From an uncultured Pseudomonadota bacterium (GTDB lineage: Bacteria > Babelota > Babeliae > Babelales > Vermiphilaceae), in NCBI GenBank assembly GCA_964433525.1, contig CAYSQT010000005.1, positions 20,103 through 84,102 of the forward strand: DNA of 64,000 bases, in the 5' to 3' direction. Shown here in pieces: positions 32,459 to 50,504 of the stretch. The first letter of the stretch is position 1, and the number at the start of each line of letters is the position of its first letter. The notes under the pieces are model-generated. The model was not told the origin of the DNA and made no database searches. It saw nothing but the letters and a program-made list of their open reading frames with translations. A program made the translations under genes and the position numbers.

Positions 32459-32621
32459 ACAATTCGCCTTTTTTTATTTTTTACAGCCTTTTATGGTCCT
32501 TAAAAAAGCCTCTAGGTGAAAAACCGTTTTTATGGTATCATCATATTACTTGATTCGTCAATTATCAGTCGTATCAATATCTTTATAATCTATTGTTTTT
32601 ACATGTCTTGCGAGGATATTC

Positions 32622-34163
32622 ATGAATATTAAAGAACTTGTTATGCCAGTCACTTTTGCGTTAGTAGCAACAATGACTATGCAATATTTCTTTTTTGGGA
32701 GTAAAGAAACTACCCCTATTGAGACAACATTCGTTGCGCCAAAAGAAAAACGTGAATACAGACCGCTCAACGTGGAAGTTGATTTTTTTGATCAAAAACG
32801 TTCTGGGCAACCTCGTGAAACTACCGTTGAAACATCGTGGGGTGTTTTACAATTTTCAACTGATGCAGCATCACTTGACAGTCTTGATATCAAACGAGAA
32901 ATTGACGGTTCTGCAAAAACAATACGTACCATTTTTCCTGTGACAGAAACAGAAAAAGAAAACCGTTGTTTCTTGGTGGGATTGAATGAGAAAACACCAT
33001 TCTATTATACTTTAGTTTCATCTGATGAAACAGAAGAAGGCTATCAATTGTTATACAAGGCTTCAAATGATGAATGCGTTCTGCAAAAACGTTTTACGGT
33101 GCACAAAAATGCGCCACAAATTGATCTACAACTTGAACTTATGCTACGCGCAGGTCAGGAAGTATCATTGACCCCACGTATTTTTTATCCAGCACCATTA
33201 ATGCCGGATATACGTGAAAATGATCTCATTTCTGGATTAGTTATTGATCAAGCAGATGTCTTTGCCAAAAAGAGAGTAGAGCAGATTAATGTTAATGCTG
33301 GCTGGTTTGAGCCTGCATTATTTGGTACCGATAGTCGTTATTTTATTCATGCAATGATAAATGATCCGAATCATTTTTGTGCGCGCACCTATTATAAATT
33401 AGAAGACAGAGATCGCCTCTTTTCCATTTTAGAAGGCCCTGAAACGCGGAGTGCGGCAACATGGAATGTATCGTTTTATATGGGACCAAAAGATTTAGCA
33501 TTGATGTCGCAATCAGATGATCGATTAGAAAAGACACTTGATTTTTCAGGATGGTTGTCTCATTTGGCTAAGATCATGCTGTATATTTTAAACTGGTTGT
33601 TTAAGTATGTTCACAATTATGGTCTTGCAATTATTTTGTTAACGCTGTTAATTCAGATATTATTGTTGCCATTTACCTTGCGTAATAATGAAGATAAATT
33701 TAAAAAACAGCAAAAAGTATATCAAGCAAAACTGGCATCTCTTGAATATCAGTACAAAGACAATCCAGAAAAACTAGCCATTGAGCGAGCCGAGTTGATA
33801 CGCAAAGAAGGGTTTCCTGGTTTTGGTTGCCTTATTCCATTTTTATTGCAAATTCCTATCTTTTTTGCGCTAAGCAGAGTGCTTTCAAGTTCATTCGAAT
33901 TATATCAGGCGCCAATGTTATGGATACCTGATTTGTCAGCAAAAGATCCGTATTATATTTTGCCTCTTATTGTGGTATTAACAATGCTTATACAAGAAGG
34001 CAAAGGAACTGATCCTCAACAGCGGATCGCAAAAATTGTCATGGCCTTTGTTTTTGGTGCTGTGACATCAAGTTTTTCTGCTGGTTTGACACTTTATTTT
34101 GCAAGTAGCCGAATTTTTACGCTTATTCAGTCAATGATTGTTAGATCATTAAGGTTGGTGTAA
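32622..34163 (+). CDS. yidC: Membrane protein insertase YidC
   Basis: 513 aa. N-terminal TM, a periplasmic domain, then the 60-kDa insertase core GLAIILLTLLIQILLLPFTLR. Confidence 0.9.
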   Translation: MNIKELVMPVTFALVATMTMQYFFFGSKETTPIETTFVAPKEKREYRPLNVEVDFFDQKRSGQPRETTVETSWGVLQFSTDAASLDSLDIKREIDGSAKTIRTIFPVTETEKENRCFLVGLNEKTPFYYTLVSSDETEEGYQLLYKASNDECVLQKRFTVHKNAPQIDLQLELMLRAGQEVSLTPRIFYPAPLMPDIRENDLISGLVIDQADVFAKKRVEQINVNAGWFEPALFGTDSRYFIHAMINDPNHFCARTYYKLEDRDRLFSILEGPETRSAATWNVSFYMGPKDLALMSQSDDRLEKTLDFSGWLSHLAKIMLYILNWLFKYVHNYGLAIILLTLLIQILLLPFTLRNNEDKFKKQQKVYQAKLASLEYQYKDNPEKLAIERAELIRKEGFPGFGCLIPFLLQIPIFFALSRVLSSSFELYQAPMLWIPDLSAKDPYYILPLIVVLTMLIQEGKGTDPQQRIAKIVMAFVFGAVTSSFSAGLTLYFASSRIFTLIQSMIVRSLRLV

Positions 34164-34768
34164 TGGCCATGGAAGGACTTCCTACACTCGCGCATCTTTT
34201 AAAAGTATTGCAGCAAGTACCTTATTTGGCATCAAAAAATGTATATCGAGTAGCAACGCATTTTTTGGATATGTCGCCACAACAAATGGAACAATTTTGT
34301 CATGTATTAGACGCAGCAAAAAAGAAGTTGATTAAATGCGCAACGTGCTTTTTTTGGCGTGAACAAGCAGGTTCATGCATATTCTGCGCATCACCAAAAC
34401 GAGAACGTGATATTGTTTGCGTTGTTGAAACATGGCAAGAAATTTTAGCGATAGAAAAAACCAGAGGTTATTCTGGTATGTATCATGTTCTTGGTGGAGC
34501 AATTTCACCGCTTGATGGTATCAACATACAAGATTTAACAATTGACGCATTAATTACGCGGGTGAATTCTCAGCAGATAAAAGAAGTTATTTTAGCAACA
34601 AACCAGACTCCAGAGGGAGAAGCAACAGCAACATATATTGCGCGCAAATTAAAAGATTCAGATGTTATTGTATCTTGTTTGGCGCGTGGATTGCCGGTTG
34701 GTTCTTTTTTGGAAGGAATGGACCGCTTAACAGTATTAAAAGCTTTATCTGAACGACGTCCATTTTAA
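34163..34768 (+). CDS. recR: Recombination protein RecR
   Basis: 201 aa. Cys4 zinc finger (C..C...C..C) and Toprim (VCVVETWQEILAIEKT..YSGMYHVLGG). TAATG overlap with yidC. Confidence 0.92.
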   Translation: MAMEGLPTLAHLLKVLQQVPYLASKNVYRVATHFLDMSPQQMEQFCHVLDAAKKKLIKCATCFFWREQAGSCIFCASPKRERDIVCVVETWQEILAIEKTRGYSGMYHVLGGAISPLDGINIQDLTIDALITRVNSQQIKEVILATNQTPEGEATATYIARKLKDSDVIVSCLARGLPVGSFLEGMDRLTVLKALSERRPF

Positions 34769-34781
34769 GCATAGGATAAAC

Positions 34782-36167
34782 ATGCGTACAGATTTTTTTG
34801 GTGGTTTAGGTTCATCACAACAAGATGAGCACTCATTATATAAAACGCGACGAAAAGAACTTGTTTCGGCAATAAAAGAACAACATTCTCACATAACCAA
34901 AGGAGCAGTTGTTTTATTTGCAGCATTTGAAACAGGATCGCAAAGATTTCGTCAAGATAAAACATTCTATTATTACACAGGTATTACTGAGCCAGGAACA
35001 GCCGTTGTTATAGAATTAGATGGAAAAACAACGTTATACCGACCCCATTGTTATGCAAAACGTACTCAATGGATGGAGATCCCACAAGCTCTTGTTGAAG
35101 GCAACGCAAAAACACTTGGTGTTGATGAATGTGCATTTTTGGGAAATGAATGTGATGGTTATGGGATTGATTCATATTTTTCATTCCATGAATATGAGCA
35201 CATGCTTGCGTATATTAAAGCGATTGTTGAACATAATGGTTCTCTTTTTACGACATTACCAGATAATGGACATGAATATTTAACAACGCGTTTAGTTATT
35301 AATCATCTACAAACATTTATTCCTAATGTACAAACGTGTATTGTAGACATTTCTTCAATAGTGGCGCGCAATAGACGACGCAAAGATGTTGGTGAAATTG
35401 AAAAAATATACCGTGCAATAGAAGTGACGGAGCTTGCGCATGAAGCTGCAACGCAAGCAATTAAAAATAATGTTACAGAAAGTGAAGTGCAGGCATCTAT
35501 AGAATATATTATGACTGCGGCACGTGCGCGCATAGCGTTCCCGAGCATTGTAGGGAGTGGTAAAAACAGCACCGTTCTGCATTATTCAGAAAATAAAGGT
35601 GCGATGCGCAATGGCGATCTTGTTGTTGTTGATATTGGTGCAGAGCTTGATAATTATTGTGCTGATTTAACGCGCACATATCCTGTGTCTGGTACTTTTA
35701 CCAAACGCCAAAAAGAGATTTACAACACTGTATTAGAAACACAAAATTATATTGCAGAGCTTGCAAAACCTGGCATGTGGCTTAAAAATGCAGAAAAATC
35801 TCAGCAATCACTTCATCATTTAGCGCAACAGTTTTTAAAAAAGCGTGGTTATGCTGATTATTTTCCACATGGTATTGGTCATTACTTGGGTCTTGATGTT
35901 CATGATGTTGGTGATTACAATACACCACTTCACGAAGGTGATGTGATTACCATAGAACCCGGTATTTATATTTCTCAAGAAGATTTGGGTGTTCGCATAG
36001 AAGACAATTACTGGATTACTAAAGATGGCGCAGTTTGTTTGAGTGAGAATTTGCCAAAAGAGGCGCATGACATAGAAGACATTATGCAGCAGGCTTTGAG
36101 TGACAATAAAGATGAAGATGATGAGGAGTCCTATTTTGAAGAAGAAGAAGAGGATGATTTTCATTAA
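34782..36167 (+). CDS. pepP: Xaa-Pro aminopeptidase (M24B)
   Basis: 461 aa. VVVDIGAELDNYCADLTRT, HGIGHYLGLDVHD and IEPGIY..VRIED. It has an acidic C-terminal tail. Confidence 0.85.
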   Translation: MRTDFFGGLGSSQQDEHSLYKTRRKELVSAIKEQHSHITKGAVVLFAAFETGSQRFRQDKTFYYYTGITEPGTAVVIELDGKTTLYRPHCYAKRTQWMEIPQALVEGNAKTLGVDECAFLGNECDGYGIDSYFSFHEYEHMLAYIKAIVEHNGSLFTTLPDNGHEYLTTRLVINHLQTFIPNVQTCIVDISSIVARNRRRKDVGEIEKIYRAIEVTELAHEAATQAIKNNVTESEVQASIEYIMTAARARIAFPSIVGSGKNSTVLHYSENKGAMRNGDLVVVDIGAELDNYCADLTRTYPVSGTFTKRQKEIYNTVLETQNYIAELAKPGMWLKNAEKSQQSLHHLAQQFLKKRGYADYFPHGIGHYLGLDVHDVGDYNTPLHEGDVITIEPGIYISQEDLGVRIEDNYWITKDGAVCLSENLPKEAHDIEDIMQQALSDNKDEDDEESYFEEEEEDDFH

Positions 36168-36263
36168 ATAGCGCTTTTTTGCACAATGTCTTTTTTTCAA
36201 ATACGCATTTGTATAAACTAAAACTACAAACACATTTCACAATTGTTTTTTTAAGGAAAAATT

Positions 36264-37460
36264 ATGAAGGTGAGAGTAGTTTTATTATTTATTTTTTGCA
36301 ATACCCTTCTTCATGGCCTTGCAATGACAGAAATACCCCAAGTCGCTCCAGCTGAACAAAAAAGTACATGGTATTATGATTTAATTGGCAAGGCTGTTGC
36401 TCCATTTAAATCAGGATATGGTTATTCTGATGAACAAAAAACAGCTGCGCGTAAGCAGATAGCGGAATTAGAAGCTAAAAAAGCGGAAGCTACTACTATC
36501 TATCAAGCTGCACTATCGGTAGCATTTGGCGAGACGCACAAAGAACTCATTACGCATGATTATAAAGAACAAATTGCAGATTTAGACAAGCAAATTCACG
36601 AACAAAAGATTATTACCGGCGAAGCGATGAGCTTTAAGCGCAAACTGATTTTGGCAGGAATTGGTGTTGCTGGAGTAACAGTTGGAGGTGCATTGGTGTA
36701 TCAATGGTTTGTGAAACAGCCGAATACAAAAAATACACTGCCAAAAAAATCGGAGCTGCCAATTGTAAAAAAGCCGAGTGAAAAAAAGAGTGTACCTGTT
36801 AAGCAAGTAGAACAACAAAAAATAGAGCAAAAACAAAAGACACCTAAGCAGCAAGAAATACCAAAACAACAAGAACGAATTGAAGAACCACCCAAATCAG
36901 AAATACCAGAACAATTAATTGACAAACAAGAAAAAGTTGCAGAACAAGCTAGTCACACAGAAGAACAAAGGGAAAAACAAATAGAAGAAGAAGCGAAAAA
37001 AGAATTAGAACAGCAGGGCGTTCAAGGTCAAAATATGCAACCGATAATTGAAGAAGAAGAAAAAGTTGAACAAAAAAAACAAAATGAACTAGAGCAACCA
37101 TCTGTGCAAAAATTTATCGAACAGAATAGAAATAATGAAGCTGGTTGGCAAAAAGCAAAGGCAGATTCGGTCTTAGAGTTAGAGTATGTTGAAAGAATAA
37201 GACCTACGGGGGAAAAGGAATGGGGTAAAAGTAGTGGAACAATTATTAAATATCCACCTTTTAAACTACCTCCAGAAATAGAATTGTCTGTCGACAAGAA
37301 AGATCCTGCAGGAAAAAAATTAATTCAAAGCCTTGAGGAGAGATTGCGGCTTATTGAAGCGCAAAGAAAAAGGCCAGGTTATAAAAACGACCATGCTGTT
37401 GCAGCGCAACAAAAGATAGAGCAAGCAAAAGCTTGGCTTGAAGAATTGAGGCATTGGTAA
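36264..37460 (+). CDS. Membrane-anchored E/K/Q-rich low-complexity protein
   Basis: 398 aa. Signal peptide, a central TM segment (LILAGIGVAGVTVGGALVYQWFV), then a long charged region rich in KQQE repeats. Confidence 0.5.
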   Translation: MKVRVVLLFIFCNTLLHGLAMTEIPQVAPAEQKSTWYYDLIGKAVAPFKSGYGYSDEQKTAARKQIAELEAKKAEATTIYQAALSVAFGETHKELITHDYKEQIADLDKQIHEQKIITGEAMSFKRKLILAGIGVAGVTVGGALVYQWFVKQPNTKNTLPKKSELPIVKKPSEKKSVPVKQVEQQKIEQKQKTPKQQEIPKQQERIEEPPKSEIPEQLIDKQEKVAEQASHTEEQREKQIEEEAKKELEQQGVQGQNMQPIIEEEEKVEQKKQNELEQPSVQKFIEQNRNNEAGWQKAKADSVLELEYVERIRPTGEKEWGKSSGTIIKYPPFKLPPEIELSVDKKDPAGKKLIQSLEERLRLIEAQRKRPGYKNDHAVAAQQKIEQAKAWLEELRHW

Positions 37461-37562
37461 ATATTGTTAAGATTGCATATTCTTCGAAAATAATGTTATT
37501 TTTAGGTATACTGAAAGCAAAGAATATTATTATTTTATTGTTTGACGAAAAAGTATATTTTC

Positions 37563-39128
37563 ATGATTTACAATTCATTTTCTCTACTACCACCACTTTT
37601 GGTGATTGTCGCTATTTTTATAACACATCGTCTTAACATTTCATTATTATTGGGCATATTTTCTGCGGCACTGATTGCTTCATCTGGTAAGATAATGGAT
37701 GCAGTTAATGCATGCATAAAGAAAGGCATAATACATTTCTCTGACGTAGACAATCTCTATTTATATGCATTGTTAATCATGATTAGTTCACTCATCGTAT
37801 TATTAACAAATACAGGTAGTGCGGCCGGCTGCGCGCAGATTATTGGTAAACGTATGCGTACCAAACGCAGTGTTGAAATGTCTTCAATGTTACTTGCGTT
37901 TTTGTTAAGTATTGATGATTATTTGAGCATTTTAACCGTTGGTTTTGTCATGCGTCCTATTGCAGACAGAGTTGCTGTTGCACGTACAAAATTGGCATAT
38001 ATTGTGCATGCGCTTGCAGGGCCGCTCGTGATTATTGTGCCCATTTCAACATGGGCAGCTGCAATTCTTGCGCAATATGACAATGCTGGTATTGGCACAA
38101 ATGTTACGAGTAAAATTATTGCAGATCCTTTTTATGTATACATGCAAACAATTCCTTTCATTTTTTATTCATGGATACTCATCTGTTCAGTTGTATTTGT
38201 GGTGTATAAAAGAGTCAGCTTTGGGCAAATAGGCAAAGATGAACAGATTGTTGTGCCTGTGCATGATCAAGACATTGATGATGCAACTAACAATCATTTA
38301 CTCGTTGAATTACTTCTGCCAATTGGCTTATTGGTGGCAGGTGTGTTTTTGGGAATATTGTATGCAGGTGATTGTTTCATTTTTGGAGGCAATAATTCTT
38401 TTGTTGATGCATTCAGAAGTAATAATCAGACATTTTTAGTATTTTGCATTTCAAGTACGCTGGCATTTGTGACAAGTATTGGTATTTCATTGTATAAAAA
38501 AATGATTAACCTTGCAGCGTTGCCCGCAATAATACATGAAGGTTATTTACTCATTAAGTCATCCATTGTGATGATTGTTTTAGCATCAATTTTGGGTAGT
38601 TTTTTGCGTCTTGATTTACATACCGGTGATTATGTTGCAGGAATGTTGTTGGGATCTGTGCCATTGTCTGTTGTTCCCGTGATGGTTTTTGTTGTTTCAT
38701 TATTAATTACTTTGGCAACTGGCTCTGCATGGGGGACATTTTCATTGCTGATTCCCATTACGGTACAAATGGTTATTGCATTGTTACAAGTAGATACCCC
38801 TGTAATTCTTGATCATATCCAATTACTATTTCCTACATTAGGTGCATTACTTTCTGGTGCTGCATGCGGCAATCATATTGCACCGTTTGCAGAAACCACT
38901 ATTATGACTGCAACAAGTACTGGTATTCAACCGCTTGAACATGCAAAAACTCAATTTGTTTACACAGTTCCGGTTATTATTGGGACGCTTGTTGCGTTTG
39001 TTACTATTGGATTGATCAATAATGTAACGTTGTGGATGAGTAGTGTATTGTCGCTTGGTATTGGTACTCTTGTCTGTTTTGGTCTGTTATACATTGGAAA
39101 TGTATTTTTTAAAGCATCTGCTCGATAA
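37563..39128 (+). CDS. NhaC-family Na+/H+ antiporter-like transporter
   Basis: About 521-aa polytopic membrane protein. SIDDYLSILTVG, SAWGTFSLLIPI and GAACGNHIAPFAETTIM resemble NhaC-family blocks. The ORF track starts at TTG 37542. Confidence 0.5.
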   Translation: MIYNSFSLLPPLLVIVAIFITHRLNISLLLGIFSAALIASSGKIMDAVNACIKKGIIHFSDVDNLYLYALLIMISSLIVLLTNTGSAAGCAQIIGKRMRTKRSVEMSSMLLAFLLSIDDYLSILTVGFVMRPIADRVAVARTKLAYIVHALAGPLVIIVPISTWAAAILAQYDNAGIGTNVTSKIIADPFYVYMQTIPFIFYSWILICSVVFVVYKRVSFGQIGKDEQIVVPVHDQDIDDATNNHLLVELLLPIGLLVAGVFLGILYAGDCFIFGGNNSFVDAFRSNNQTFLVFCISSTLAFVTSIGISLYKKMINLAALPAIIHEGYLLIKSSIVMIVLASILGSFLRLDLHTGDYVAGMLLGSVPLSVVPVMVFVVSLLITLATGSAWGTFSLLIPITVQMVIALLQVDTPVILDHIQLLFPTLGALLSGAACGNHIAPFAETTIMTATSTGIQPLEHAKTQFVYTVPVIIGTLVAFVTIGLINNVTLWMSSVLSLGIGTLVCFGLLYIGNVFFKASAR

Positions 39129-39215
39129 AGCTTTATATCTTTTTCTTTTTTACTATTTTTTTGTCTGTTTGATTTGTTAAGAGTAGGCAAATAATACATA
39201 GTTACAAAAAAAGGA

Positions 39216-42200
39216 GTGGACGTGAAGCGATTACTTATCTGTATGTTCTTGTTAACATATTTTTCAATAAAAGCAGATGATTTTCAAACAAAACAAGCGC
39301 CCTGTACTGATTTAGTCGTTGATTGTAATCTTTTAATGCATGATTCAACAAGTGCTGCGGTAGGAAATATTGTGAAACCCGATGATTTGCATCCTGGTAA
39401 TCCTCCAGTTTCTTTTATTCATAACTTTGGTTCAGAGAATACATTTGTAGGAAAAAATGCGGGTAGTTTTTTCAACCTCATAGGAAGTGATAATTCAGGA
39501 TTTGGTGTTTTTGCATTACAAAATATTACATCAGGAACAAACAATGTCGCTATTGGGGCTGTCACTTTAGCATCTAATGCCGAAGGTAGTGATAATGTTG
39601 CTATTGGTCGGGCTGCTCTTAATAAGAATATTCTTGATGATAATGTTGCTGTTGGTTTTAGAGCCTTAGAAAATAATAAGACAGGTAGCTCAAATACAGC
39701 GGTTGGTGCCCGTGCATTGCTCAATAATAATGATGGACAAAATAATACTGCAATGGGAGTTGGAGCTCTGAGAGATAATAGATCAGGCAGTGGAAATACT
39801 GCGGTTGGAAGAAGAGCATTACAAAATAATAAGACTGGTATTAATAGTACTGCGATTGGTGTTCGTGCGTTGCAGTTAAGTAGTAGTGGTGGTAATACTG
39901 CAGTTGGCTATCAAGCGTTGTCATCAAATACAGTTGGTACATCTAATACCGCCGTTGGTAATAATGCATTACAAAAAAATCAGAGTGGTTCATCAAATGT
40001 GGCTGTAGGTAGAGATGCATTACGTCAGAATCTTTCTGGAAGTCAGAATATTGCCATTGGCCATCAAGCGGGAAATAATTGTACTGGAGCAGAAAGCAAT
40101 AATATTTTGATAGGAAACCTCGGTATTATTGGAGACAACAATACTATTCGTATTGGTGACAGTGCTCATACAAAAACATTTATTGCAGGTATCAGTGGAA
40201 TACCCCTTGCGGGGCCTACGGTATTGCCAGTGTATGTATTGTCTTCCGGGCAATTAGGAACACTGGTGTCTTCGCGTAAATTTAAGCATTCTATTCGTGA
40301 AATGCATGACAATGATTCAATGTTTATTTATGATCTTAATCCCGTAACTTTTGTTTATAATGAAGATGAATCAGCAACATTACAATACGGTCTTATTGCA
40401 GAAGAAGTTGACAGGGTGTTTCCTGCATTGGTCATCAGGGATGAGCATAATGAGCCGATTGCTGTTTATTATGAAATTTTGCCAGTATTTCTTTTAAATG
40501 AGATGAAAAAATATAATTATGATATTACCAAATTAAAAGAAGCTATTGATAATATACGCGCTCTGGTGCTTAAGCGTACTAAGCAACCTCCATGCGATGT
40601 AACTGTTGATTGCAATCTTGTAATGCAAGACTCAACAGGTGCAACTGTCGGAGATGTTATGAAACAAGTCACGCTTAATGCGTCTCCTGTTCGATTCATT
40701 CATAATTATGGAGCACAGAATACATTTGTAGGAAAAAATGCAGGTAATTTTAAGACAACAGGCAATGGCGCTAATTCAGGATTTGGTGTATCCGCATTAA
40801 GAGCCCTTACAACAGGAACAGATAATACTGCCGTTGGTAGAGCTGCTTTAAGATTTAACACTGCAGGGATTCAAAATACGGCAGTTGGTCGATCTGCACT
40901 TAATCAAAATGTAATTGGTAATGATAATGTTGCAGTGGGTTACAATGCATTATCTGCAAATGTAACAGGTAGTTCAAATACAGCTGTGGGATCTCGGGCG
41001 TTATTGCTCAATACAACTGGTCAAGATAATACAGCAATGGGCACTCGTGCATTAAGAGCGAATAATGGTAATGCTAACACAGCTGTTGGAAGAAGCGCTT
41101 TAAGAAATGGGCTAACTGTCACTAATAGTACAGCAGTAGGTTATCGTGCCTTAGAAGCAAATAATAGCAACCGCAATACGGCGGTTGGTTATAAATCACT
41201 GTTAGTTAACTTAGCTGGCTCATTTAACACCGCAATTGGTAATAATTCCTTACAAAATAATGAAGCTGGTTCATCTAACGTAGCTATTGGTAAAGATGCG
41301 TTACTTAAGAATAAATTTGGAAGTCAAAATAGTGCAGTTGGCTATCAAGCTGGAAGCAATTTAGATGGTGCAGAAAGCACAAATATTATGATAGGAAATC
41401 TTGGTGTTACAGATGATAATAATACTATTCGCATCGGCAATAGCTCTCATGCCAAAACCTTTATAGCTGGTATTGTACCTCTTCTTTCTGCGAGAATGCA
41501 ATTGCGTGTAGATTCTGAGGGGAAATTAAGTAAAAAAATGGCAATGTCTTCACGCAGATTTAAATCGTCTATTAACAGTATGAATGACATTGATGTAGAA
41601 CAGATTTATCGTCTTAACCCTGTATCATTTGTATATAATAATGATGAATGGGGAACAAAACGATACGGCTTAATTGCAGAAGAAGTTGAAGAACATTTTT
41701 CTGATTTAGTTATGAGAAATGAACGCAATGAGTTGCTTGGTGTGCGTTATGACATTCTTCCTGTGTTGTTGTTGCATGAAATGAAAAAGCATAAATGTAC
41801 TATTGCTCAACTACAAGAAGTTGTCGCAGATATTTCTGCGCGAGCGTCCAAATACTCTCATGCAAATGTTGGAGATATAGTGGTAACAAGAGCAGCATGC
41901 GACACAAGTGTTGAATGTAATATTTTGATGCAAGATTCAACTGGTCTGAGAGTGGGCAACATTTTTAAAGATGGCCAAACCTTTATTCATAACTTTGGCA
42001 CGAATGCAAAAGGTGAATATACCAACACATTTGTAGGGATAAGTGCAGGTAATTTTAATACATCAGGCAATGGAGGTAATTCCGGATTTGGCTTTAATGC
42101 ATTAGCATTAAATACAACAGGAACAGACAATACAGCACTTGGTGACGGTACGTTATCTAACAATAGCGTAGGTAGTTTTAATACAGCAGTAGGTTCTTTA

Positions 42201-43166
42201 GCGCTCAAAGATAATAGTACCGGTAAAGATAATGTCGCAATTGGTTCTGGTGTATTAACATCTAATAGTGGTGGTAATGCAAATACAGCAATAGGAAGAG
42301 AAGCGCTTCACTTGCAGGATCAAGGTAATGATAATACAGCTTTAGGTGCACGCGCTTTACAGTTTGCTCTAGCAAATGCAAATACAGCAATCGGAGCAGA
42401 AGCATTAATGAGTAATGGATTTGGTATAAATAGCACTGCCGTTGGATATAAAGCATTAAGCTCTAATGTAACTGGTGACCGCAATACGGCAGTTGGCTAT
42501 CAATCATTAACATCAAATAATGGAAAATTTAATACAGCGATTGGAGCTAATTCTTTGCGGTCTAATACTGCAGGTTCCTTTAACGTTGCTATTGGCGATG
42601 GAGCATTATTAAATAGTCTTAATAATGATTCAAACATTGCTATAGGTTTAGGAGCAGGTTCAACTTATGCTTTTTCAGCAAGCAACAACATTGTTATAGG
42701 TAATGCAGGGGCATTGAGGGATAACAATACTATCCGCATTGGAAACAATTCTCATAAAGCAGTATTCATTGCCGGCATTCCTCAGTTACCATTAAATGCA
42801 CCGGAACAACCTCAAGTTTTTGTTAATTCTTCAGGGCAATTGGGAGTGCAGCCATCATCACGCAAATACAAACATGATATTAATAAAATAGCGGATGATT
42901 CAGAAGGTATTTACAATCTTAAGCCAGTAACATTTATGTATAATGATGATGAATCTGCAGAGAAACAGTATGGTTTAATTGCAGAAGAAGTTGATGAAGT
43001 ATTGTCAGCGTTAGTGGTGAGAGATGGCAATAATGAGCCATTGAGCGTTCGTTATGATATGCTTCCGGTATTACTATTGAATGAGCTCAAAAAACAACAT
43101 GAAGATGTTATGATGTTAGAAAAAATGGCTGTAGAATTGCAAAAAGAGCTTGTTTGCGAGAATTGA
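39216..43166 (+). CDS. Secreted triple-module fibre protein: three tandem tail-fibre-like repeat regions, each followed by a peptidase-S74-like intramolecular chaperone domain
   Basis: 1316 aa. Signal-like N-terminus (KRLLICMFLLTYFSIKA); GTG 39222 is the better spaced start after AAAGGAG. It has 16-17-aa NTA(V/I)GxxALxxNxxGxx repeats. SSR(K/R)(F/Y)K...YGLIAEEV...LPV(L/F)LL(N/H)E(M/L)KK occurs three times. Confidence 0.8.
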   Translation: MDVKRLLICMFLLTYFSIKADDFQTKQAPCTDLVVDCNLLMHDSTSAAVGNIVKPDDLHPGNPPVSFIHNFGSENTFVGKNAGSFFNLIGSDNSGFGVFALQNITSGTNNVAIGAVTLASNAEGSDNVAIGRAALNKNILDDNVAVGFRALENNKTGSSNTAVGARALLNNNDGQNNTAMGVGALRDNRSGSGNTAVGRRALQNNKTGINSTAIGVRALQLSSSGGNTAVGYQALSSNTVGTSNTAVGNNALQKNQSGSSNVAVGRDALRQNLSGSQNIAIGHQAGNNCTGAESNNILIGNLGIIGDNNTIRIGDSAHTKTFIAGISGIPLAGPTVLPVYVLSSGQLGTLVSSRKFKHSIREMHDNDSMFIYDLNPVTFVYNEDESATLQYGLIAEEVDRVFPALVIRDEHNEPIAVYYEILPVFLLNEMKKYNYDITKLKEAIDNIRALVLKRTKQPPCDVTVDCNLVMQDSTGATVGDVMKQVTLNASPVRFIHNYGAQNTFVGKNAGNFKTTGNGANSGFGVSALRALTTGTDNTAVGRAALRFNTAGIQNTAVGRSALNQNVIGNDNVAVGYNALSANVTGSSNTAVGSRALLLNTTGQDNTAMGTRALRANNGNANTAVGRSALRNGLTVTNSTAVGYRALEANNSNRNTAVGYKSLLVNLAGSFNTAIGNNSLQNNEAGSSNVAIGKDALLKNKFGSQNSAVGYQAGSNLDGAESTNIMIGNLGVTDDNNTIRIGNSSHAKTFIAGIVPLLSARMQLRVDSEGKLSKKMAMSSRRFKSSINSMNDIDVEQIYRLNPVSFVYNNDEWGTKRYGLIAEEVEEHFSDLVMRNERNELLGVRYDILPVLLLHEMKKHKCTIAQLQEVVADISARASKYSHANVGDIVVTRAACDTSVECNILMQDSTGLRVGNIFKDGQTFIHNFGTNAKGEYTNTFVGISAGNFNTSGNGGNSGFGFNALALNTTGTDNTALGDGTLSNNSVGSFNTAVGSLALKDNSTGKDNVAIGSGVLTSNSGGNANTAIGREALHLQDQGNDNTALGARALQFALANANTAIGAEALMSNGFGINSTAVGYKALSSNVTGDRNTAVGYQSLTSNNGKFNTAIGANSLRSNTAGSFNVAIGDGALLNSLNNDSNIAIGLGAGSTYAFSASNNIVIGNAGALRDNNTIRIGNNSHKAVFIAGIPQLPLNAPEQPQVFVNSSGQLGVQPSSRKYKHDINKIADDSEGIYNLKPVTFMYNDDESAEKQYGLIAEEVDEVLSALVVRDGNNEPLSVRYDMLPVLLLNELKKQHEDVMMLEKMAVELQKELVCEN
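39303..40592 (+). repeat. Fibre module 1 (coding tandem repeat unit)
   Basis: Runs from CTDLVVDCNLLMHDST to the end of S74-like domain 1. Putative nucleophile Ser codon at 40269-40271 (aa 352). Confidence 0.75.
40593..41897 (+). repeat. Fibre module 2 (coding tandem repeat unit)
   Basis: Runs from CDVTVDCNLVMQDST to the end of S74-like domain 2. Putative nucleophile Ser codon at 41547-41549 (aa 778). Confidence 0.75.
41898..43163 (+). repeat. Fibre module 3 (coding tandem repeat unit)
   Basis: Runs from CDTSVECNILMQDST to the C-terminus. Putative nucleophile Ser codon at 42855-42857 (aa 1214). Confidence 0.75.
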
Positions 43167-43183
43167 TTTAGATTGATAAAGTA

Positions 43184-43246
43184 AAAATATCTACCGGTAT
43201 TGTATATTGAAATCATCAGTATATAGTGTCGGTAGATATTTTTTTG
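43184..43246 (+). terminator. Rho-independent terminator after the fibre gene
   Basis: AAAATATCTACCG (43184-43196) pairs with CGGTAGATATTTT (43230-43242), followed by a T-run. The loop is long and partly self-pairing. Confidence 0.6.
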
Positions 43247-43377
43247 TTCATTTGCTACTTCAGGTTTTATGATCTATAGTAGTTTATATGAAAGCTTTTT
43301 GTATCATGTAGAATTGGTGTGGTAGGGTGTATGGCATTGTTATATATTGGGAAACAGTTTTTTTAAGCGTGGTGTGT

Positions 43378-44148
43378 ATGAAAATAGGTAAAAACCAGCA
43401 TTGGAGTTTTGTAGTAATTTCTTTTTTAATGGTTACCATATCATACGCAAGTCAACAACAGTTGGTTCAATATCAGTGGCCGAATGGTAAGCCAACTGGA
43501 CCTAATACAGGTCAAGGGCTTCCAGATTTAATCAAATCTACTATGTTTGCGAAGTTAGATGAGAATGGTAATGAAGTTGTTAAAGACGAACAATCACTTG
43601 TTCGTCAGATGAACAGTGATTTCCGTGGTTTTATGTGGGCTACCATAAAGGGTGATTGTAGAAGGATGGATACTGGCAAACAAGAATTATTTGATCATAT
43701 TATTGGTACCTTAGAGCTATTTTCTTATGGCAATATTCATTCTGTTGAAGGTGCTTTAGCTGAAATTAAGTATCTTGATGACAAAGTTATGCCTGCTGTG
43801 GCGTTGGTTACAGAAAAGTTAGGCATAACATATCGTGAATCGCGTGCGTCTGAGAATGGCAAATTTTTATACTTTGAGCAAAGTTGGGGCGACAATTATA
43901 AGAGGATAGTGAAAGGCTGTTATGACGCTCAATCGACACAACAGAATGATCCGGATCTAAACGCAGAAAAACAATTGGAACAATTGTGCCAACAGTCTAA
44001 GCAGCTGCAACAACAACTTAAAATAGCAGAAGATGCATTAAAAAAAAATAAAGATGCGCTTAAAATAATGACTTATATCTCTAGGATAAGTATGGCAATA
44101 GGCATTATTGGATGGTTATGGATCATTGGGACTTTTTTCAAAAAATAA
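43378..44148 (+). CDS. Hypothetical protein with a signal peptide, a Q-rich coiled coil and a C-terminal TM anchor
   Basis: ATG 43378 gives MKIGKNQHWSFVVISFLMVTISYA. The C-terminus is ISMAIGIIGWLWIIGTFFKK. The ORF track starts at GTG 43327. Confidence 0.5.
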   Translation: MKIGKNQHWSFVVISFLMVTISYASQQQLVQYQWPNGKPTGPNTGQGLPDLIKSTMFAKLDENGNEVVKDEQSLVRQMNSDFRGFMWATIKGDCRRMDTGKQELFDHIIGTLELFSYGNIHSVEGALAEIKYLDDKVMPAVALVTEKLGITYRESRASENGKFLYFEQSWGDNYKRIVKGCYDAQSTQQNDPDLNAEKQLEQLCQQSKQLQQQLKIAEDALKKNKDALKIMTYISRISMAIGIIGWLWIIGTFFKK

Positions 44149-44281
44149 TCGTTACAAGCTTGTTGTATAGCCATTTTTGTATTGACCGATCTAGGATTAT
44201 GGGCTACCTTAGAAGAAAGAGCCCCACTCTAAAAGAAATAAATTTACAAAATAGTTTTTTTGTTCACAAGGATTATATTTT

Positions 44282-44740
44282 ATGAGTATGAATAAAGCGT
44301 TTTATCCACGCAAAGAAGATGTTGTAGCAAATTGGTGTCACATTGATGCAGAAGGTAAAGTGCTTGGGCGTCTTGCTACTTTTGTAGCTGATAGATTGCG
44401 CGGTAAAGACAAACCTCATTATACCCCACACACTGATTGTGGCGATTATGTAGTTATTACAAATGCTGACAAGATTGTTCTTTCCGGTGACAAATGGGAA
44501 GACAAAGAGTACGTGAAGGTAACTGGCTGGATTGGCGGAAAACAAGAAATTGCAGCAAAAGACCTTCATGCTAAGCATCCAACACGTTTAATTGAGCTTG
44601 CAGTAAGACGTATGCTTCCTAAAAACAGATTAAGCCGCCAGATGATTAAAAAATTAAAAGTGTATGCTGGCGCAGAGCATCCTCACGTTGCACAGAACCC
44701 TACAGTTGTAGAGTTAGAGATACAAAAGCCACGCGGATAA
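44282..44740 (+). CDS. rplM: 50S ribosomal protein L13
   Basis: 152 aa. WCHIDAEGKVLGRLATFVADRLRGK and YTPHTDCGDYVVITNA. Confidence 0.93.
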   Translation: MSMNKAFYPRKEDVVANWCHIDAEGKVLGRLATFVADRLRGKDKPHYTPHTDCGDYVVITNADKIVLSGDKWEDKEYVKVTGWIGGKQEIAAKDLHAKHPTRLIELAVRRMLPKNRLSRQMIKKLKVYAGAEHPHVAQNPTVVELEIQKPRG

Positions 44741-44755
44741 GTTTTAAAAAAATAA

Positions 44756-44797
44756 AAAAAGGCCTTATGCATAATTAAATGTGTAAGGCCTTTTTTT
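44756..44797. terminator. Bidirectional rho-independent terminator
   Basis: AAAAAGGCCTTA (44756-44767) pairs with TAAGGCCTTTTT (44784-44795). It sits between the convergent rplM and rseP. Confidence 0.8.
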
Positions 44798-44830
44798 ATT
44801 GTTTTTTAGCTACAATAGAATCCCTCTATG

Positions 44831-45970
44831 TTATAATCCAAGCTTACTTAAAATTGGCGCAATATACGGTGCAACAAGGCGAAAAATATCTTTTGCGCTG
44901 AGATACAAGAAGAGAATAATAAACATAATCCATGTCGCAATATGAATATACTCTCGCACTTTAATAGGCAATGATCGCCCAATAAGTGCTTCTATTGAAT
45001 AAAAAAGAATTTGTCCGCCATCAAGGATAGGTAGTGGAATAAGGTTTAGTACAGCTAAGTTGATGCTGATGATAGCAAGCAAAAGAAGAAATATTTTGAT
45101 GCCAGTTGATGCAGCTTTGGTTGTCATTGCAACAATCATGACAGGACCAGCAATTTCACTACGCATCTTTTTAATTTGAGTGAATCCTAGCATAGTGTTT
45201 TTAATCCAGGTATTTGTCATAGCGATACCCTGCTTTATGGCGTCGACAAATGAGTGAGGAGGTGTTTCTGCTGCATAAAATTCAACACCAAGAACACCAA
45301 TAGATGTGCCATTAATTGTTCTTTCTCCCAAAACAATCTGTTTTTCTAACATATTACCATCTCGTTCAATGGTAAAAGTTGCTTCTTTGAGGGCAAGAGG
45401 CGCAAGGAGAGTTTGTAACTTTTGAATGCTTTCCTCTATTGGTTCATTTTGTATGGCAATGATTTTATCGCCGACAATCAGACCATACTTTTCAGCAGGC
45501 GATTCTTGTTGGATGGTTCCGACAACAGGCTTTTGTATGAGTGGTGTTTTGGGGATTCCGGTCATAAAGAGCGCAATGAAAGTGAAATAAGCGAATATAA
45601 GATTAAAGAGAATTCCGCCAAGCATAACGCATAATTTTTGATAAAAAGGCTTTGAGGCGAACGAGTGTTCATCTGTTGCAAGGGCATCTTTTTGTTCACC
45701 TTGTCCAACTTCAGCTGCTCCTGCAATTTCTACATAACCACCAAGAGGTATTGCAGAAAGACTAAATTCAGTGTCGCCTATTTTTTTGCTTATCAGTTTT
45801 GGGCCAAATCCAATGGAGAATGACGGAGTTCGTATGCTGAAAACCTTGGCGAATAAAAAATGTCCCAATTCATGAAAGCCGATAAGAAAACCCATGCCAA
45901 AGCATCCAATTAGAATAAAAAAAATATTTTGAAAAAGGGTTGCTGCGTGTGAAAATAGTACTGAGGACAT
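44831..45970 (-). CDS. rseP: RIP metalloprotease RseP (M50 site-2 protease)
   Basis: 379 aa. HELGHFLFAK (HExxH), a central PDZ-like region, and NLIPLPILDGG. Confidence 0.9.
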   Translation of the reverse strand: MSSVLFSHAATLFQNIFFILIGCFGMGFLIGFHELGHFLFAKVFSIRTPSFSIGFGPKLISKKIGDTEFSLSAIPLGGYVEIAGAAEVGQGEQKDALATDEHSFASKPFYQKLCVMLGGILFNLIFAYFTFIALFMTGIPKTPLIQKPVVGTIQQESPAEKYGLIVGDKIIAIQNEPIEESIQKLQTLLAPLALKEATFTIERDGNMLEKQIVLGERTINGTSIGVLGVEFYAAETPPHSFVDAIKQGIAMTNTWIKNTMLGFTQIKKMRSEIAGPVMIVAMTTKAASTGIKIFLLLLAIISINLAVLNLIPLPILDGGQILFYSIEALIGRSLPIKVREYIHIATWIMFIILFLYLSAKDIFRLVAPYIAPILSKLGL

Positions 45971-46168
45971 AGGGGCTCCTTGTTAAAAAAATGAGTAAAA
46001 AAAGTAATTTTTTTTGCTAAGATTGCAGAAATAAGGTATCATTATTACTATCATAAGTCTATGGCCTATGTAACCTTTATACGCTATTTTGCTGAATCAT
46101 AAACGACATTCTACCCCCGAGATAACCTTTAAATCAGTCTTTTTTGAGAATGGGCATTAATTATTTTC

Positions 46169-46196
46169 TTGAAAAAATTTACAAAGAAGGTAAAAT
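46169..46196 (+). promoter_or_regulatory. Candidate sigma70-type promoter for the str operon
   Basis: TTGAAA (46169-46174), a 16-nt spacer, then TAAAAT (46191-46196). This lies about 110 nt upstream of rpsL. AT-rich DNA makes chance matches likely. Confidence 0.3.
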
Positions 46197-46305
46197 AGCA
46201 ATTAGTCAACTTAACCAGCTGAAGTGCTGCGTCGGATTAAAGTTGCGATTATATAATAATAAAGATTTTTATAATTTATAACGTGTAACATGAGGATTTG
46301 TATAC

Positions 46306-46698
46306 ATGCCAACGATTAATCAATTGTGTCGATTTGGTAGAAGCAAAATTAAAGCAAGGCCTAAAAGCCCTGCGTTACGCAGAAGCCTTTTTCTTAAAGG
46401 GCCTTTTGCAAAGGGTACGTGTACCCGTGTTCTTACTACCACTCCAAAAAAACCTAACTCTGCACTTCGAAAAATTGCTCGTGTTAAATTGACAACGGGG
46501 TTTGAAGTAACTGCGTATATACCCGGTGAAGGCCATAACTTGCAGGAGCATAGTGTTGTGCTTGTGCGAGGTGGGCGTGTTAAAGATTTACCAGGCGTTA
46601 AGTACCATATCGTGAGAGGCGCACTTGATTGCGCAGGTGTTGACAAGAGAAGACAAGGAAGATCGCTTTATGGTGCAAAGCGTCCAAAGAAACAGTAA
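46306..46698 (+). CDS. rpsL: 30S ribosomal protein S12
   Basis: MPTINQL...KKPNSALRK... Confidence 0.97.
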
Positions 46699-46709
46699 GG
46701 AATTAAAAC

Positions 46710-47192
46710 ATGCCAAGGCGTAGAAAAGTAGAATATATAAGAGAGGTTGGAGTTGATCCAAAATTTGGGTCAGCGCTGGTTCAAAAATTGATTAATGTTG
46801 TCATGAAATGTGGCAAAAAAGATATTGCACGATCCATTGTGTATGAAGCAATGGAGCAGTTGGTGAAAAAAACAAATGGTGATGAGAAAAAAGCGCTTGA
46901 GCTTTTTAACAGAGCATTTGAGCAAGTGGCGCCATTTATTGAAGTGCGTTCCCGTCGTGTTGGGGGTAGTACTTATCAAATTCCTCGTGAAGTGAGCGAC
47001 AAAAGAAGAAGAGCGCTTGCGTTCCGTTGGTTAGTATCTGCAGCAAGGTTAAGATCCGACAAGACTATGGGGTTGCGTTTAGGGCGAGAGCTTTTGGATG
47101 CATATGAGCTAAAAGGTGGAGCTGTCAAAAAAAGAACTGATGTGCAACGTATGGCGGATGCTAATCGTGCGTTCTCTCATTATGCATGGTAA
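46710..47192 (+). CDS. rpsG: 30S ribosomal protein S7
   Basis: MPRRRKV...[14 protein letters not shown]...AFSHYAW. Confidence 0.97.
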
Positions 47193-47204
47193 GGTGGGAA
47201 CGTT

Positions 47205-49286
47205 ATGTCAACTAAACAATATCCTTTAGAAAAATATAGAAATATAGGGATTGCTGCCCATATTGATGCAGGAAAAACAACAGTTACTGAACGTATTTTG
47301 TTTTACACGGGCGTTTCTCATAAAATTGGAGAAGTGCACGAAGGTGAAGCAACTATGGATTGGATGGAGCAAGAGCAGGAGCGTGGTATTACCATAACGT
47401 CTGCAGCGACAACCAGTTTTTGGAAAGATCATCAGATTAATATTATTGACACCCCTGGGCATATTGATTTTACCATTGAGGTGGAAAGATCATTGCGTGT
47501 TCTTGATGGTGTTGTTGCTGTTTTTTCTGGCGTTGAAGGTGTTCAGCCTCAATCTGAAACAGTATGGAAACAGGCAAATCGTTACAAAGTCCCTCGCATT
47601 GTTTTTGTTAATAAATTAGATCGTATTGGTGCTGATTACTTACGCACTGTCCAAAATATTAAAGCAAAATTGGGTGCCAATGTTGTTGCAATGCAAATGC
47701 AAGTTGGCATGTCTGAAGATTTTGAATCTATTATTGATCTTTTGACTCGAAAAATGGCGACATTTAAGGGTGAAAATGGTGAAACAATAGATTGGGTTGA
47801 CGTTCCAAGTGAATACGTTAACCAAATGGAAGAGTTGCGTGCAAAAATTGTTGAATCAGCATGTGATTTTGATGAAAAATTAGCGGACAAATATTTGAAT
47901 GAAGAAGAAATTTCTGTTCAGGAAATTAAAGCGGCAATCCGTAAAGGGGTTGTTGAGTTAAAAGTTGTTCCGGTGTTCTGTGGTACTGCTTTTAAAAATA
48001 AGGGAGTTCAACTGCTGCTTGATGGTGTTATTGATTACTTGCCATCTCCGCTTGATATTCCTGCCATAGAAGGAACAAACACTGATACTGGCGCAAAATT
48101 TCCTATCTCAGCAGATCCTAATGGACCATTTTATGGTCTCGTTTTTAAAATTATGTCAGATCCTTTTGTGGGTGTTCTGAACTTTGTTCGTGTTTATTCT
48201 GGTGAATTGAAGTCTGGTTCTTATGTGTACAGTGTTCGCACTGGAGAAAAAGAACGCGTCAGTCGTTTGCTAAAAATGCATGCCAACAAGCGTGAAGAAA
48301 TCTCTTCTGTAAAAGCGGGAGATATTGTTGCTGTTGTTGGTATTAAAGACGCTCAAACCGGAGATACTCTTTGTATAGATAAAGCGCCAGTTGTGCTTGA
48401 GTCTATTACTATTCCAACTCCTGTTATTTCAACGTCTGTTGAGCCAAAAGCTAAAGCAGATTATGAAAAAATGACGTTAGCATTACGTAAAATGATGCAA
48501 GAAGACCCTTCTTTCAGATTTTCTTACAATGAAGAAACAGGGCAGACGGAAATCTCTGGCATGGGTGAATTGCATTTGGAAATTGTAGTTGACCGTTTGC
48601 GTAGAGAACATAAAGTAGAAGTTACTCAAGGTAAACTGCAAGTTGCATACAGAGAAACCATTCAAAAATTTGCAGAATCTGAAGGTAAATTTGTTCGACA
48701 ATCTGGTGGTCGTGGTCAATATGGTCACGTTTGGATGAAAGTTGAGCCTTTGGAGCGTGGCAAAGGTTTTGAATTTGTTAACGCTGTTGTGGGTGGAGCT
48801 ATTCCGCGTGAATTTATTCCAGCTGTTGAAAAAGGTGTCAAAGAAACGTTGTCTGCAGGTGCGCTTGGAGGATATCCTGTTGTTGACGTGAAGGCAACTT
48901 TATATGATGGATCATATCATGATGTTGACTCTTCTGAAATAGCATTTAAGGTTGCTGCGTCTATGGCATTTAAGGCCGCATCACTCAAAGGTTCGCCAGT
49001 GTTGCTGGAGCCGGTGATGTCCGTTAATGTTTATACTCCTGATGAAAATATTGGGGACGTTATTGGTGATATTAACTCAAGACGTGGTAGAATTTTGGAT
49101 TCCAAATCAGAGTTTAACCAGCAAATTATCAGTGCAGAAGTGCCGCTTGGTGAAATGTTTGGTTATTCAACGCAACTTCGAGCTATGACTAAGGGGCGAG
49201 CTAGTTATGACATGGAATTTTTATGTTATAGAGAAGTTCCTAAGAGCGTACAAGAAGCAATTGTAACAAAAAATAAAAAAGAATAA
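47205..49286 (+). CDS. fusA: Elongation factor G
   Basis: 693 aa. [17 protein letters not shown] and NKLDR. Confidence 0.97.
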
Positions 49287-49313
49287 TTTTTGTCAATCAT
49301 AGGAGTATAAACA

Positions 49314-50504
49314 ATGGCAAAAGATGTATTTCAGCGCGGTAAACCGCATATAAATGTTGGTACCATTGGTCACGTTGATCATGGTAAAACAACGTTAACT
49401 GCGGCAATTACAACCGTTTTGTCAAAAAAAGGTTATGCGCAAGCGCGTGCGTTTGATGAAATTGATAATGCACCAGAAGAAAGAGAACGTGGTATTACTA
49501 TTTCAACATCGCATGTTGAGTATGAATCAGATAAGCGTCACTATGCACACATTGACTGTCCTGGGCATGCTGATTATGTAAAAAACATGATTACCGGTGC
49601 TGCTCAGATGGATGGTGCTATTCTTGTAGTATCCGCTGCTGACGGTGCAATGCCTCAAACACGTGAACACATTGTATTGGCAAAAAACGTTAACGTACCA
49701 GCGCTTGTTGTGTTTCTTAACAAGGTTGATATGGTTGATGACCCTGAGATGGTTGATATGGTTGAAGAAGAAATTCGCGATCTTCTCAAAAAATATGATT
49801 TTCCTGGTGATGATATTCCTGTCATTAGAGGTTCTGCTCTTAAGGCTCTTGAAGGTGAAGATAGCGAGTTAGGTGTTCAGTCTATTATGCGCCTTGTTGA
49901 TGCATTAGATAACTATATACCAGAACCTGCTCGTGAAATCGAAAAACCATTCTTAATGCCAGTTGAAGGTGTTTTCTCTATTGCTGGTCGTGGTACTGTT
50001 GCAACAGGACGTATTGAAACAGGAAAAGTTAAAGTTGGTGAAGAAGTTGAAATAGTTGGGTTTAACGACACAGTAAAAACAACGGTCACTGGCGTAGAAA
50101 TGTTTAGAAAAATATTGAATGAAGGTTTAGCTGGCGATAACGTTGGTCTTCTTCTTCGTGGTGTTAAAAAAGAAGATATCGAACGTGGAATGGTTATTTC
50201 AAAACCAGGTAGCATTAAACCGCATAAAAAATTCCGTTGCAAAGTATATATTCTGTCAAAAGAAGAAGGCGGAAGACATAGTGCATTCTTGACTGGTTAT
50301 CGTCCGCAATTCTATTTCAGAACAACAGACGTTACCGGTATCGTATCATTGCCAGAAGGACGTGATATGGTTATGCCTGGTGATACCGTTGAGCTTACCG
50401 TTGAATTGATTTCAAAAATCGCAATGGATAAAGATCTTCGTTTTGCTATTCGTGAAGGTGGAAGAACAGTTGGTTCCGGTGTTATAACAGAAATTCTTGA
50501 TTAA
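49314..50504 (+). CDS. tuf: Elongation factor Tu
   Basis: 396 aa. [17 protein letters not shown] and NKVD. Confidence 0.98.

Follow-up and report, generated by a model that had tools for sequence, protein, structure and literature searches.

A Babeliales reading frame with three fiber modules, each followed by its own S74 chaperone domain

We analyzed a 64,000-nt stretch of DNA (the window; contig CAYSQT010000005.1, positions 20,103 to 84,102) from the chromosome of a Babeliales bacterium (Dependentiae, TM6). One open reading frame (ORF) in it encodes three fiber modules in a row, each of which ends in its own S74 intramolecular chaperone domain (S74/ICA) with a complete Ser-Lys dyad. The product is probably exported through Sec as the precursor of trimeric fibers, either surface-bound or secreted, and would trimerize and cut itself at three S74 sites. 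A sequence-only reading of this DNA had described the ORF as an array of tail-fiber modules with S74 domains. The domain identification was correct, but the protein should be labeled a cellular, secreted fiber precursor of a Babeliales bacterium and not a phage tail fiber.

Three units in one reading frame

A hidden Markov model (HMM) of the unit found exactly three matches in the 64-kb window translated in all six frames, as did an HMM of the S74 domain, and none of these matches lay beyond the ORF. The units had been proposed to form a threefold tandem array, with a length of about 430 aa and starts at nt 39303, 40593, and 41898. They aligned end to end as proposed (Table 1), with pairwise identities of 52 to 57% for protein and 61 to 67% for DNA. 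All five sequence blocks that had been claimed were recovered in every unit: a Cys pair; FIHN[FY]G, which extends in each unit to FIHN[FY]G..NTFVG..AGNF; twelve short repeats; a neck of the form NNTIRIG..H.K.FIAGI; and SSR[KR][FY]K at aa 352, 778, and 1214, followed downstream by YGLIAEEV. The repeats conform to N-[TVS]-A-[VIM]-G-x2-A-L-x2-N-x2-G-x2 at a spacing of 16 to 17 aa, which appears in the DNA as a 48/51-nt periodicity. Eleven repeats per unit matched this expression, and the twelfth is a variant, NSTA[IV]G, located inside a gap of 33 to 34 aa. At the junctions, the S74 helix is followed by the next Cys-pair cap within approximately 10 to 25 residues, with neither a stop codon nor a second signal peptide in between.

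Chance is excluded as the origin of this pattern. Under the best explanation, a complete module of the phage tail-fiber type underwent two old tandem duplications in frame and so gave rise to the array. We also considered trivial causes. An assembly artefact or a collapsed repeat was ruled out because the units are only 61 to 67% identical in DNA, and three separate genes misread as one were ruled out by the lack of stop codons and of signal peptides inside the frame.

Table 1. Features of the fiber gene and its borders in the window (residue numbers refer to the 1316-aa version of the ORF)
Feature	Position (nt)	Strand	Details and evidence
Whole ORF: signal peptide + 3 x [fiber module + S74]	39216..43166	+	1316 aa (1314 from the second GTG)
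Ribosome binding site AGGAG and two candidate GTG starts (39216, 39222)	39212..39224	+	Read from sequence
Apparent Sec signal peptide (aa 1-20)	39216..39275	+	MDVKRLLICMFLLTYFSIKA, followed by DD after the predicted cut; read from sequence by eye
Unit 1 (aa 30-459)	39303..40592	+	Cap C30/C37, FIHNFG, 12 repeats (aa 93-294), NNTIRIG neck, S74-1
S74/ICA 1	40269..40580	+	Ser352 (40269-40271), Lys357; predicted scissile bond between V351 and S352; Pfam E 6e-13; own HMM 40266-40553; alignment to solved S74 chains
Unit 2 (aa 460-894)	40593..41897	+	C460/C466, FIHNYG, 12 repeats (aa 520-721), neck, S74-2
S74/ICA 2 (internal)	41547..41855	+	Ser778 (41547-41549), Lys783; predicted scissile bond between M777 and S778; Pfam E 3.2e-10; AF2; Foldseek
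Unit 3 (aa 895-1316)	41898..43163	+	C895/C901, FIHNFG, 12 repeats (aa 955-1156), neck, S74-3
S74/ICA 3 (terminal)	42855..43163	+	Ser1214 (42855-42857), Lys1219; predicted scissile bond between P1213 and S1214; Pfam E 1.4e-11; own HMM 42852-43127
Terminator-like hairpin (inverted repeat I1)	43183..43246	+	20-bp stem and T-run, 17 nt past the stop codon

The assignment of the fifth block to PF13884 was borne out for all three copies. When searched as isolated segments, copies 1 to 3 scored 49.3, 40.6, and 44.9 bits, respectively, against a Pfam cut-off of 22, and the whole protein gave three matches (E of 4.2e-34). Each match began at profile position 1, which corresponds to S352, S778, or S1214. 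The Lys that had been noted five residues further on was present in every copy at profile position 6 (K357, K783, and K1219), and both Ser and Lys were invariant in two S74 alignments comprising 12 and 38 copies. The three dyads aligned with S93/K98 of the phage S16 gp37 tip (6F45), and in the alignments to solved S74 chains S352/K357 fell on the Ser and Lys of the SDxxxK motif; in endoNF the catalytic dyad is S911/K916. A Pfam scan of the protein at E of 1 or less returned PF13884 only, plus a chance match to SAM_EPH.

The comparison with solved phage-fiber chaperones led to the same identification. A profile built from 12 S74 copies of multi-S74 proteins matched the PDB sequences of the S16 gp37 tip (6F45, E of 3.8e-8), the T5 L-shaped fiber (8HQZ, 4.6e-5), and the ICA domain of MYRF (7DC3, 5.8e-4). 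These solved relatives were found by the S74 profile only; a phmmer search of the PDB sequences with the whole protein gave no match at E of 0.01 or less. Copy 2 and its neck (aa 733-880) were modeled with AlphaFold2 (AF2) from a 38-sequence alignment at a predicted local distance difference test (pLDDT) value of 85.4. In this single-chain model, the long C-terminal helix typical of the ICA fold is predicted to be present and to span 32 residues (model residues 116-147). Its best Foldseek match in the PDB was 7DC3 (E of 3.7e-4, probability of 1.0, TM score of 0.53 to 0.57), followed by 3GUD and 3GW6, and all of the 10 best matches were ICA domains.

Every copy is under purifying selection and none is decaying, as judged qualitatively. 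The ratio of nonsynonymous to synonymous substitution (dN/dS) between units was approximately 0.3 in the cap, repeats, neck, and S74 domain alike, a value to be read as qualitative only since dS exceeded 1 and was near saturation. Each of the three copies retains every residue that is invariant in the family.

In an AF2 model of unit 1, the repeat region reached pLDDT values of 73 to 92 with one strand per approximately 17 aa, and it is accordingly modeled as a regular solenoid. We assigned it to no specific solenoid class because the Foldseek matches of the whole-unit model were not significant (best E of 0.05). A Cys pair directly after the coiled coil also occurs in the database proteins P0034, P0210, and P0170; speculatively, it could serve as a disulfide cap.

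The N-terminus resembles a signal peptide, with a basic n-region, an 11-residue hydrophobic core, and I-K-A before the predicted cut, all judged by eye; the same reading of the N-terminus revealed no lipobox. The AGGAG box shares bases with the first GTG and ends 5 nt ahead of the second one, and the database copy of the protein (P0001) is 1314 aa long. Translation therefore probably begins at GTG 39222, in which case all residue numbers, which follow the sequence-only reading throughout, would drop by 2.

Relatives with one and with several S74 domains

More than 5,500 homologues were found, and most of those ranked at the top are long bacterial proteins whose only S74 is terminal. Unit 1 gave 122 matches among phage records, covering up to 92% of the unit at 26 to 32% identity; the tail fiber of Pelagibacter phage HTVC112P, for example, was 32% identical over 86% of the unit. 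Overall, the module was 26 to 45% identical to annotated tail fibers of Pelagibacter, Roseobacter, Methylophilales, and Staphylococcus phages, and it matched tail spike and tail fiber families of PHROG with E values down to 2.7e-87. One homologue (P0007) bears the N-terminal domain of the T7 tail fiber. A scan of genome contigs yielded one distant match, in Chitinophagales (L001). Two single-module relatives (P0145 and P0210) are located on contigs of 3.1 and 2.5 kb, which are too short to provide context or to prove a one-module architecture.

The window protein contains three S74 copies, two of them internal, and thereby differs from the usual layout of phage proteins and of Bdellovibrio surface fibers, in which a single copy occupies the extreme C-terminus. 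It had been stated that known S74 proteins carry a single terminal copy. This is true of the searchable literature, where the copies described are single and usually terminal and where we came across neither a protein with several S74 domains nor any mention of S74 proteins from Dependentiae. It does not apply to MYRF, in which the copy is also internal, nor to at least about 20 other multi-S74 proteins in databases. Because of the internal copy in MYRF, we regard the single terminal copy as an architectural habit and not as a defining feature of the S74 domain.

A search with the S74 profile identified 126,460 S74 proteins among 1.84 billion cluster representatives. About 20 of the 150 best-scoring representatives contained 2 to 4 matched stretches, which is a lower bound for the whole set; multi-copy proteins sum their domain scores and so rise to the top of the ranking. 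The multi-S74 architecture is thus rare but not unique. Three copies occur in P0022, P0004, P0124, and P0125, and two copies in P0003, P0021, and P0126 to P0129. In nearly every case, the copies inside one protein are each other's nearest relatives, so the architecture must have arisen repeatedly by internal duplication. The dyad is retained in nearly all copies. The readable multi-S74 loci (L003, L005, L006, and L008) are all cellular. As in the window protein, tandem units of fiber and S74 stand in one ORF; the other proteins differ in having their own internal duplications, modules of about 320 to about 2350 aa, and other fiber bodies.

Several of these proteins and loci show individual features. 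P0124 (7103 aa) has S74 domains at approximately 2289, 4645, and 7003, each after a body of about 2350 aa, which is the same layout at five times the scale. Two adjacent genes at L008:2948-9045 (GCA_036494545.1, DASXOB010000016.1) encode 1017 and 1014 aa with three S74 domains each, about 320 aa apart. This pair, P0125 and its neighbor, amounts to six module-chaperone units in a row; it adjoins a Ser/Thr kinase and a TPR protein, and the same stretch is found in L009. Genes with two S74 domains are arrayed with single-S74 paralogues of 1385, 1763, and 1720 aa in L005:1-13163 and of 1449 and 744 aa in L006:8001-14643. The 1763-aa gene of L005 has no domain in the Pfam table, yet our own HMM finds an S74 in it (L005:6832-7119). 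In P0126, which has two S74 domains, a hydrophobic segment that resembles a transmembrane one comes after the first at about 385-410, together with an Arg-rich stretch (…WTLGAMLVLGIALTARRYRGGRRR…), an order that recalls the arrangement of ICA and transmembrane segment in MYRF.

The nearest characterized cellular analogues are the mosaic adhesive trimer (MAT) fibers of Bdellovibrio bacteriovorus, which are chromosomally encoded, trimeric, and preceded by a signal peptide; 13 of the 21 end in one S74 (Caulton et al. 2024, PMC10769870). One of them, Bd3182, a chromosomal fiber with a signal peptide, cleaves itself at S782, and the S782A exchange blocks cleavage (PMC10769870). The window protein resembles them in being encoded on the chromosome of a bacterium that lives on other cells and in having an apparent signal peptide, a beta-structured fiber related to phage fibers and presumably trimeric as well, and S74 with a Ser-x4-Lys dyad, the self-removal of which has been demonstrated for Bd3182. 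The differences, as far as MATs can be compared by their description, are that MATs combine one terminal S74 with a conserved N-terminal beta-rich domain of about 130 aa, whereas the window protein lacks that domain, with only about 9 residues before the Cys-pair cap, and has three S74 domains (two internal) and another type of repeat (17-aa NTAVG repeats).

The chaperoned fibers of phages (K1F endoNF, 3GW6; T5 pb1, 4UW8/8HQZ; S16 gp37, 6F45; GA-1 gp12, 3GUD) possess a homologous S74/ICA with the same dyad, and the repeats, neck, and S74 of the window protein align with fibers of Pelagibacter, Roseobacter, and Methylophilales phages. Those proteins, however, are virion components that attach to the particle through their N-terminal domain and have one terminal chaperone, whereas the window protein is cellular, starts with an apparent signal peptide, and contains three module-chaperone units per chain. 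MYRF and Dictyostelium MrfA share the internal position of the ICA, which after trimerization cuts N-terminally to its Ser and stays on the downstream part, and 7DC3 is the best structural match of internal copy 2. MYRF differs in that it is a membrane-bound eukaryotic transcription factor; it has one ICA, and its downstream part is a membrane anchor and not a further fiber that brings its own ICA. Its S587/K592 dyad cuts between P586 and S587 only as a trimer; trimerization is driven by the C-terminal coiled coil, and the sequence continues downstream of the ICA (PMC8326128). Trimeric autotransporter adhesins with YadA-like heads have comparable short N-[ST]-[AV]-[IV]-G repeats and the logic of an elongated trimeric adhesin, and several homologues are labeled "trimeric autotransporter adhesin" by JGI. 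In contrast to these, the window protein has no YadA beta-barrel anchor and no Hep_Hag or HIM match (Pfam, E of 1 or less); S74 would supply trimerization instead.

Proposed maturation and the concatenated alternative

By analogy with endoNF, T5 pb1, Bd3182, and MYRF, we infer that the chains trimerize, that each of the three sites is cut, and that the products come apart. A surface location and a role in host binding are likewise proposed. After export, the C-terminal coiled-coil helix of each S74/ICA would bring three chains into register, and each S74 would chaperone the repeat fiber on its own N-terminal side. Once trimeric, the Ser-Lys dyad of each S74 would cut just before the catalytic Ser, at the bonds listed in Table 1. 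Four products are predicted: fiber 1 (aa 21-351, 33.5 kDa), S74-1 with fiber 2 (aa 352-777, 45.3 kDa), S74-2 with fiber 3 (aa 778-1213, 45.6 kDa), and free S74-3 (aa 1214-1316, 11.9 kDa). One ORF would thus give rise to three different trimeric fibers at a ratio of 1:1:1, two of which would carry the preceding chaperone trimer as their N-terminal base. Dependentiae are uncultured or hard-to-culture parasites of protists. Because of this parasitism and the analogy with Bdellovibrio MAT fibers, the fibers likely act in adhesion to or recognition of the protist host. More generally, S74 may serve as a self-excising, trimerizing separator of polyproteins, both in this bacterium and, by independent origin, in at least seven further bacterial lineages, with internal chaperone trimers kept as N-terminal bases of the next fibers. 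We advance this wider proposal tentatively, with the balance tipping slightly to doubt.

Several observations weigh against the proposed maturation. Many single-S74 homologues (P0034, P0057, P0104, and P0015) join the same modules directly, without an S74 between them; the start formed by the cap and FIHNFG recurs in these proteins 2 to 3 times per chain, joined after "...QLGT". The family is therefore bead-like, and a continuous multi-module fiber is its usual design; what is distinctive here is that each bead keeps its own chaperone. The first S74 copy of P0004 (about 318-415) has lost Ser-x4-Lys and reads STFSAGAMEG where others have SSARxK, while the rest of the domain is kept. In the window protein itself, we recognized no anchor domain, and module 1 follows the apparent signal peptide at a distance of only about 9 residues. 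The AF2 model of a whole unit is moderate, with a pLDDT of 69 and values below 50 for the neck and cap. Finally, the residue after the catalytic Ser is Ser and not the Asp of the common SDxxxK motif; this is probably tolerated because T5 has Gly at the same position.

The main rival to separate fibers is one concatenated fiber, in which the internal S74 domains would act as nodes of trimerization and registration, either uncut or with the pieces staying together, and only the terminal S74 would be lost. It would agree with the homologues, most of which string together 2 to 3 of the same modules with one terminal S74, and with the S74 C-terminal helix that leads straight into the next module. 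It is also supported by P0004, the first copy of which looks like a natural uncleavable internal S74 node; an uncleaved node, which the sequence-only reading had named as an alternative, would therefore exist at least elsewhere. Nevertheless, purifying selection in the window protein has kept the three dyads as well as the remaining invariant residues of S74. Moreover, every trimerized S74 with an intact dyad that has been studied cleaves and releases its upstream part, including MYRF with its downstream sequence. We consequently regard a concatenated fiber as unlikely, although it deserves to be kept in view.

S74/ICA is a well-understood device for folding and quality control that the searchable literature describes throughout as one copy per protein. 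If all three copies are active, the domain would also work as an internal, repeated cut-and-assemble element, and the MYRF precedent would be extended to true polyproteins. Such a maturation logic, if true, is not known from either S74 proteins or bacterial adhesins and could be used for engineering multi-trimer assemblies.

Chromosomal setting and turnover of the gene

The fiber gene is cellular and lies in the Babeliales chromosome between nhaC and rplM; it is not a phage gene. It is preceded by yidC, recR, an M24 aminopeptidase gene, a hypothetical ORF, and a gene for an NhaC-type antiporter and is followed by an ORFan, rplM, rseP, rpsL/rpsG, fusA, tuf, and the S10 operon. The elongation factor G (EF-G) encoded in the window is 89% identical to a protein of a "Candidatus Babeliales bacterium" and approximately 75% identical to those of other Dependentiae, which places the window in a Babeliales genome with a GC content of approximately 36%. 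The block yidC-recR-pepP-x-nhaC-[ ]-rplM-rseP-rpsL-rpsG-fusA is conserved in two close relatives with EF-G identities of 94% and 91%. In both of them, the slot between nhaC and rplM lacks the fiber gene: one relative has a PP2C gene there, and the slot of the other is empty. Given the empty or PP2C-occupied slot at syntenic positions, the fiber gene is a lineage-specific gain. The closer relative (L004) contains between pepP and nhaC, at L004:4078-4305, a 66-aa ORF (VQYGLIAEEVDEVFP...LLLNEMKKQKQ...) that corresponds to the C-terminal two thirds of S74 (VQYGLIAEEV..., profile positions 30-94) and is 74 to 89% identical in DNA to parts of S74-2 and S74-3 of the window. This remnant is a pseudogene and provides evidence that fiber genes are gained and lost quickly in the clade. 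To our knowledge, the attachment machinery of Dependentiae is essentially undescribed. A lineage-specific, fast-turnover secreted protein that resembles phage fibers is a plausible host-range determinant, in parallel to the Bdellovibrio MAT fibers.

The same turnover might indicate a neutral accident, that is, a tolerated in-frame fusion or duplication of paralogous fiber genes in which modules 2 and 3 are passengers or the gene is heading to decay. The absence of the gene at the same locus in such close relatives, the pseudogene fragment nearby in one of them, and the frequency of tandem paralogous S74 genes (L005, L006, and L008) are in line with this idea. We nonetheless consider it improbable: the 3951-nt frame has stayed open with a dN/dS of about 0.3 in all regions since an old duplication (dS above 1), all motifs are intact, and the same architecture has evolved independently in at least seven other proteins.

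Somewhat less probable still is a variation cassette, in which diverged modules would recombine and change the exposed fiber specificity, a scenario that fits either maturation model. The conserved boundary motifs of tandem units that share 61 to 67% of their DNA, together with the lineage-specific presence of the gene, would suit such a cassette. Against it, the units share no long identical stretches (the best is 33 nt at 94%), no invertase or recombinase gene lies nearby, and no variant assemblies were seen, P0001 being a single-member cluster.

As to tail-fiber identity, the claim holds insofar as the module is homologous to phage tail fibers and fails insofar as the gene, which sits among Babeliales housekeeping genes, belongs to no phage or prophage. 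That a phage or prophage tail-fiber gene, or the fiber gene of a contractile injection system, lies in this contig by chance is scarcely credible despite the identity to annotated phage tail fibers, the PHROG matches, and the T7-type domain of P0007, since the flanking genes from nhaC to tuf are syntenic with relatives, no phage gene is located near the fiber gene, no tRNA gene was found in 30000-50000, the protein starts like a signal peptide instead of with an N-terminal virion-attachment domain, and the three S74 and fiber matches are the only ones in the whole 64 kb.

Two hypothetical ORFs neighbor the fiber gene. The ORFan at 43327..44148 (+), directly downstream of it, encodes 273 aa (256 from an internal Met); its start resembles a signal peptide, a Gln-rich stretch looks like a coiled coil, and a hydrophobic anchor is located at the C-terminus. 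Among 5.8 billion proteins it had no homologue but itself; it matched no Pfam, NCBIfam, or PHROG family and is absent from the syntenic locus of the relatives. We considered it as an anchor or partner of the fiber, and a functional link found no support (no homologues, no family). The other ORF, at 36264-37460 (+), encodes 398 aa with a signal-peptide-like start, a central hydrophobic segment, and a long Lys/Glu/Gln-rich region, and it belongs to no Pfam or NCBIfam family. NCBIfam likewise contains no family for the fiber protein or for either of these neighbors. At the position of the 398-aa ORF, the relatives hold an unrelated-looking ORF of 66 or 362 aa; this position is therefore another variable slot within the conserved block.

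An imperfect 18-nt direct repeat, TATTTTTTTGTCTGTTTG at 39154-39171 and TATTTTTTTGTTCATTTG at 43237-43254, brackets the fiber gene and its terminator. The two AT-rich copies are 83% identical and 4083 nt apart. They could be a trace of insertion or simply AT-rich terminator tails, and their resemblance may be due to chance.

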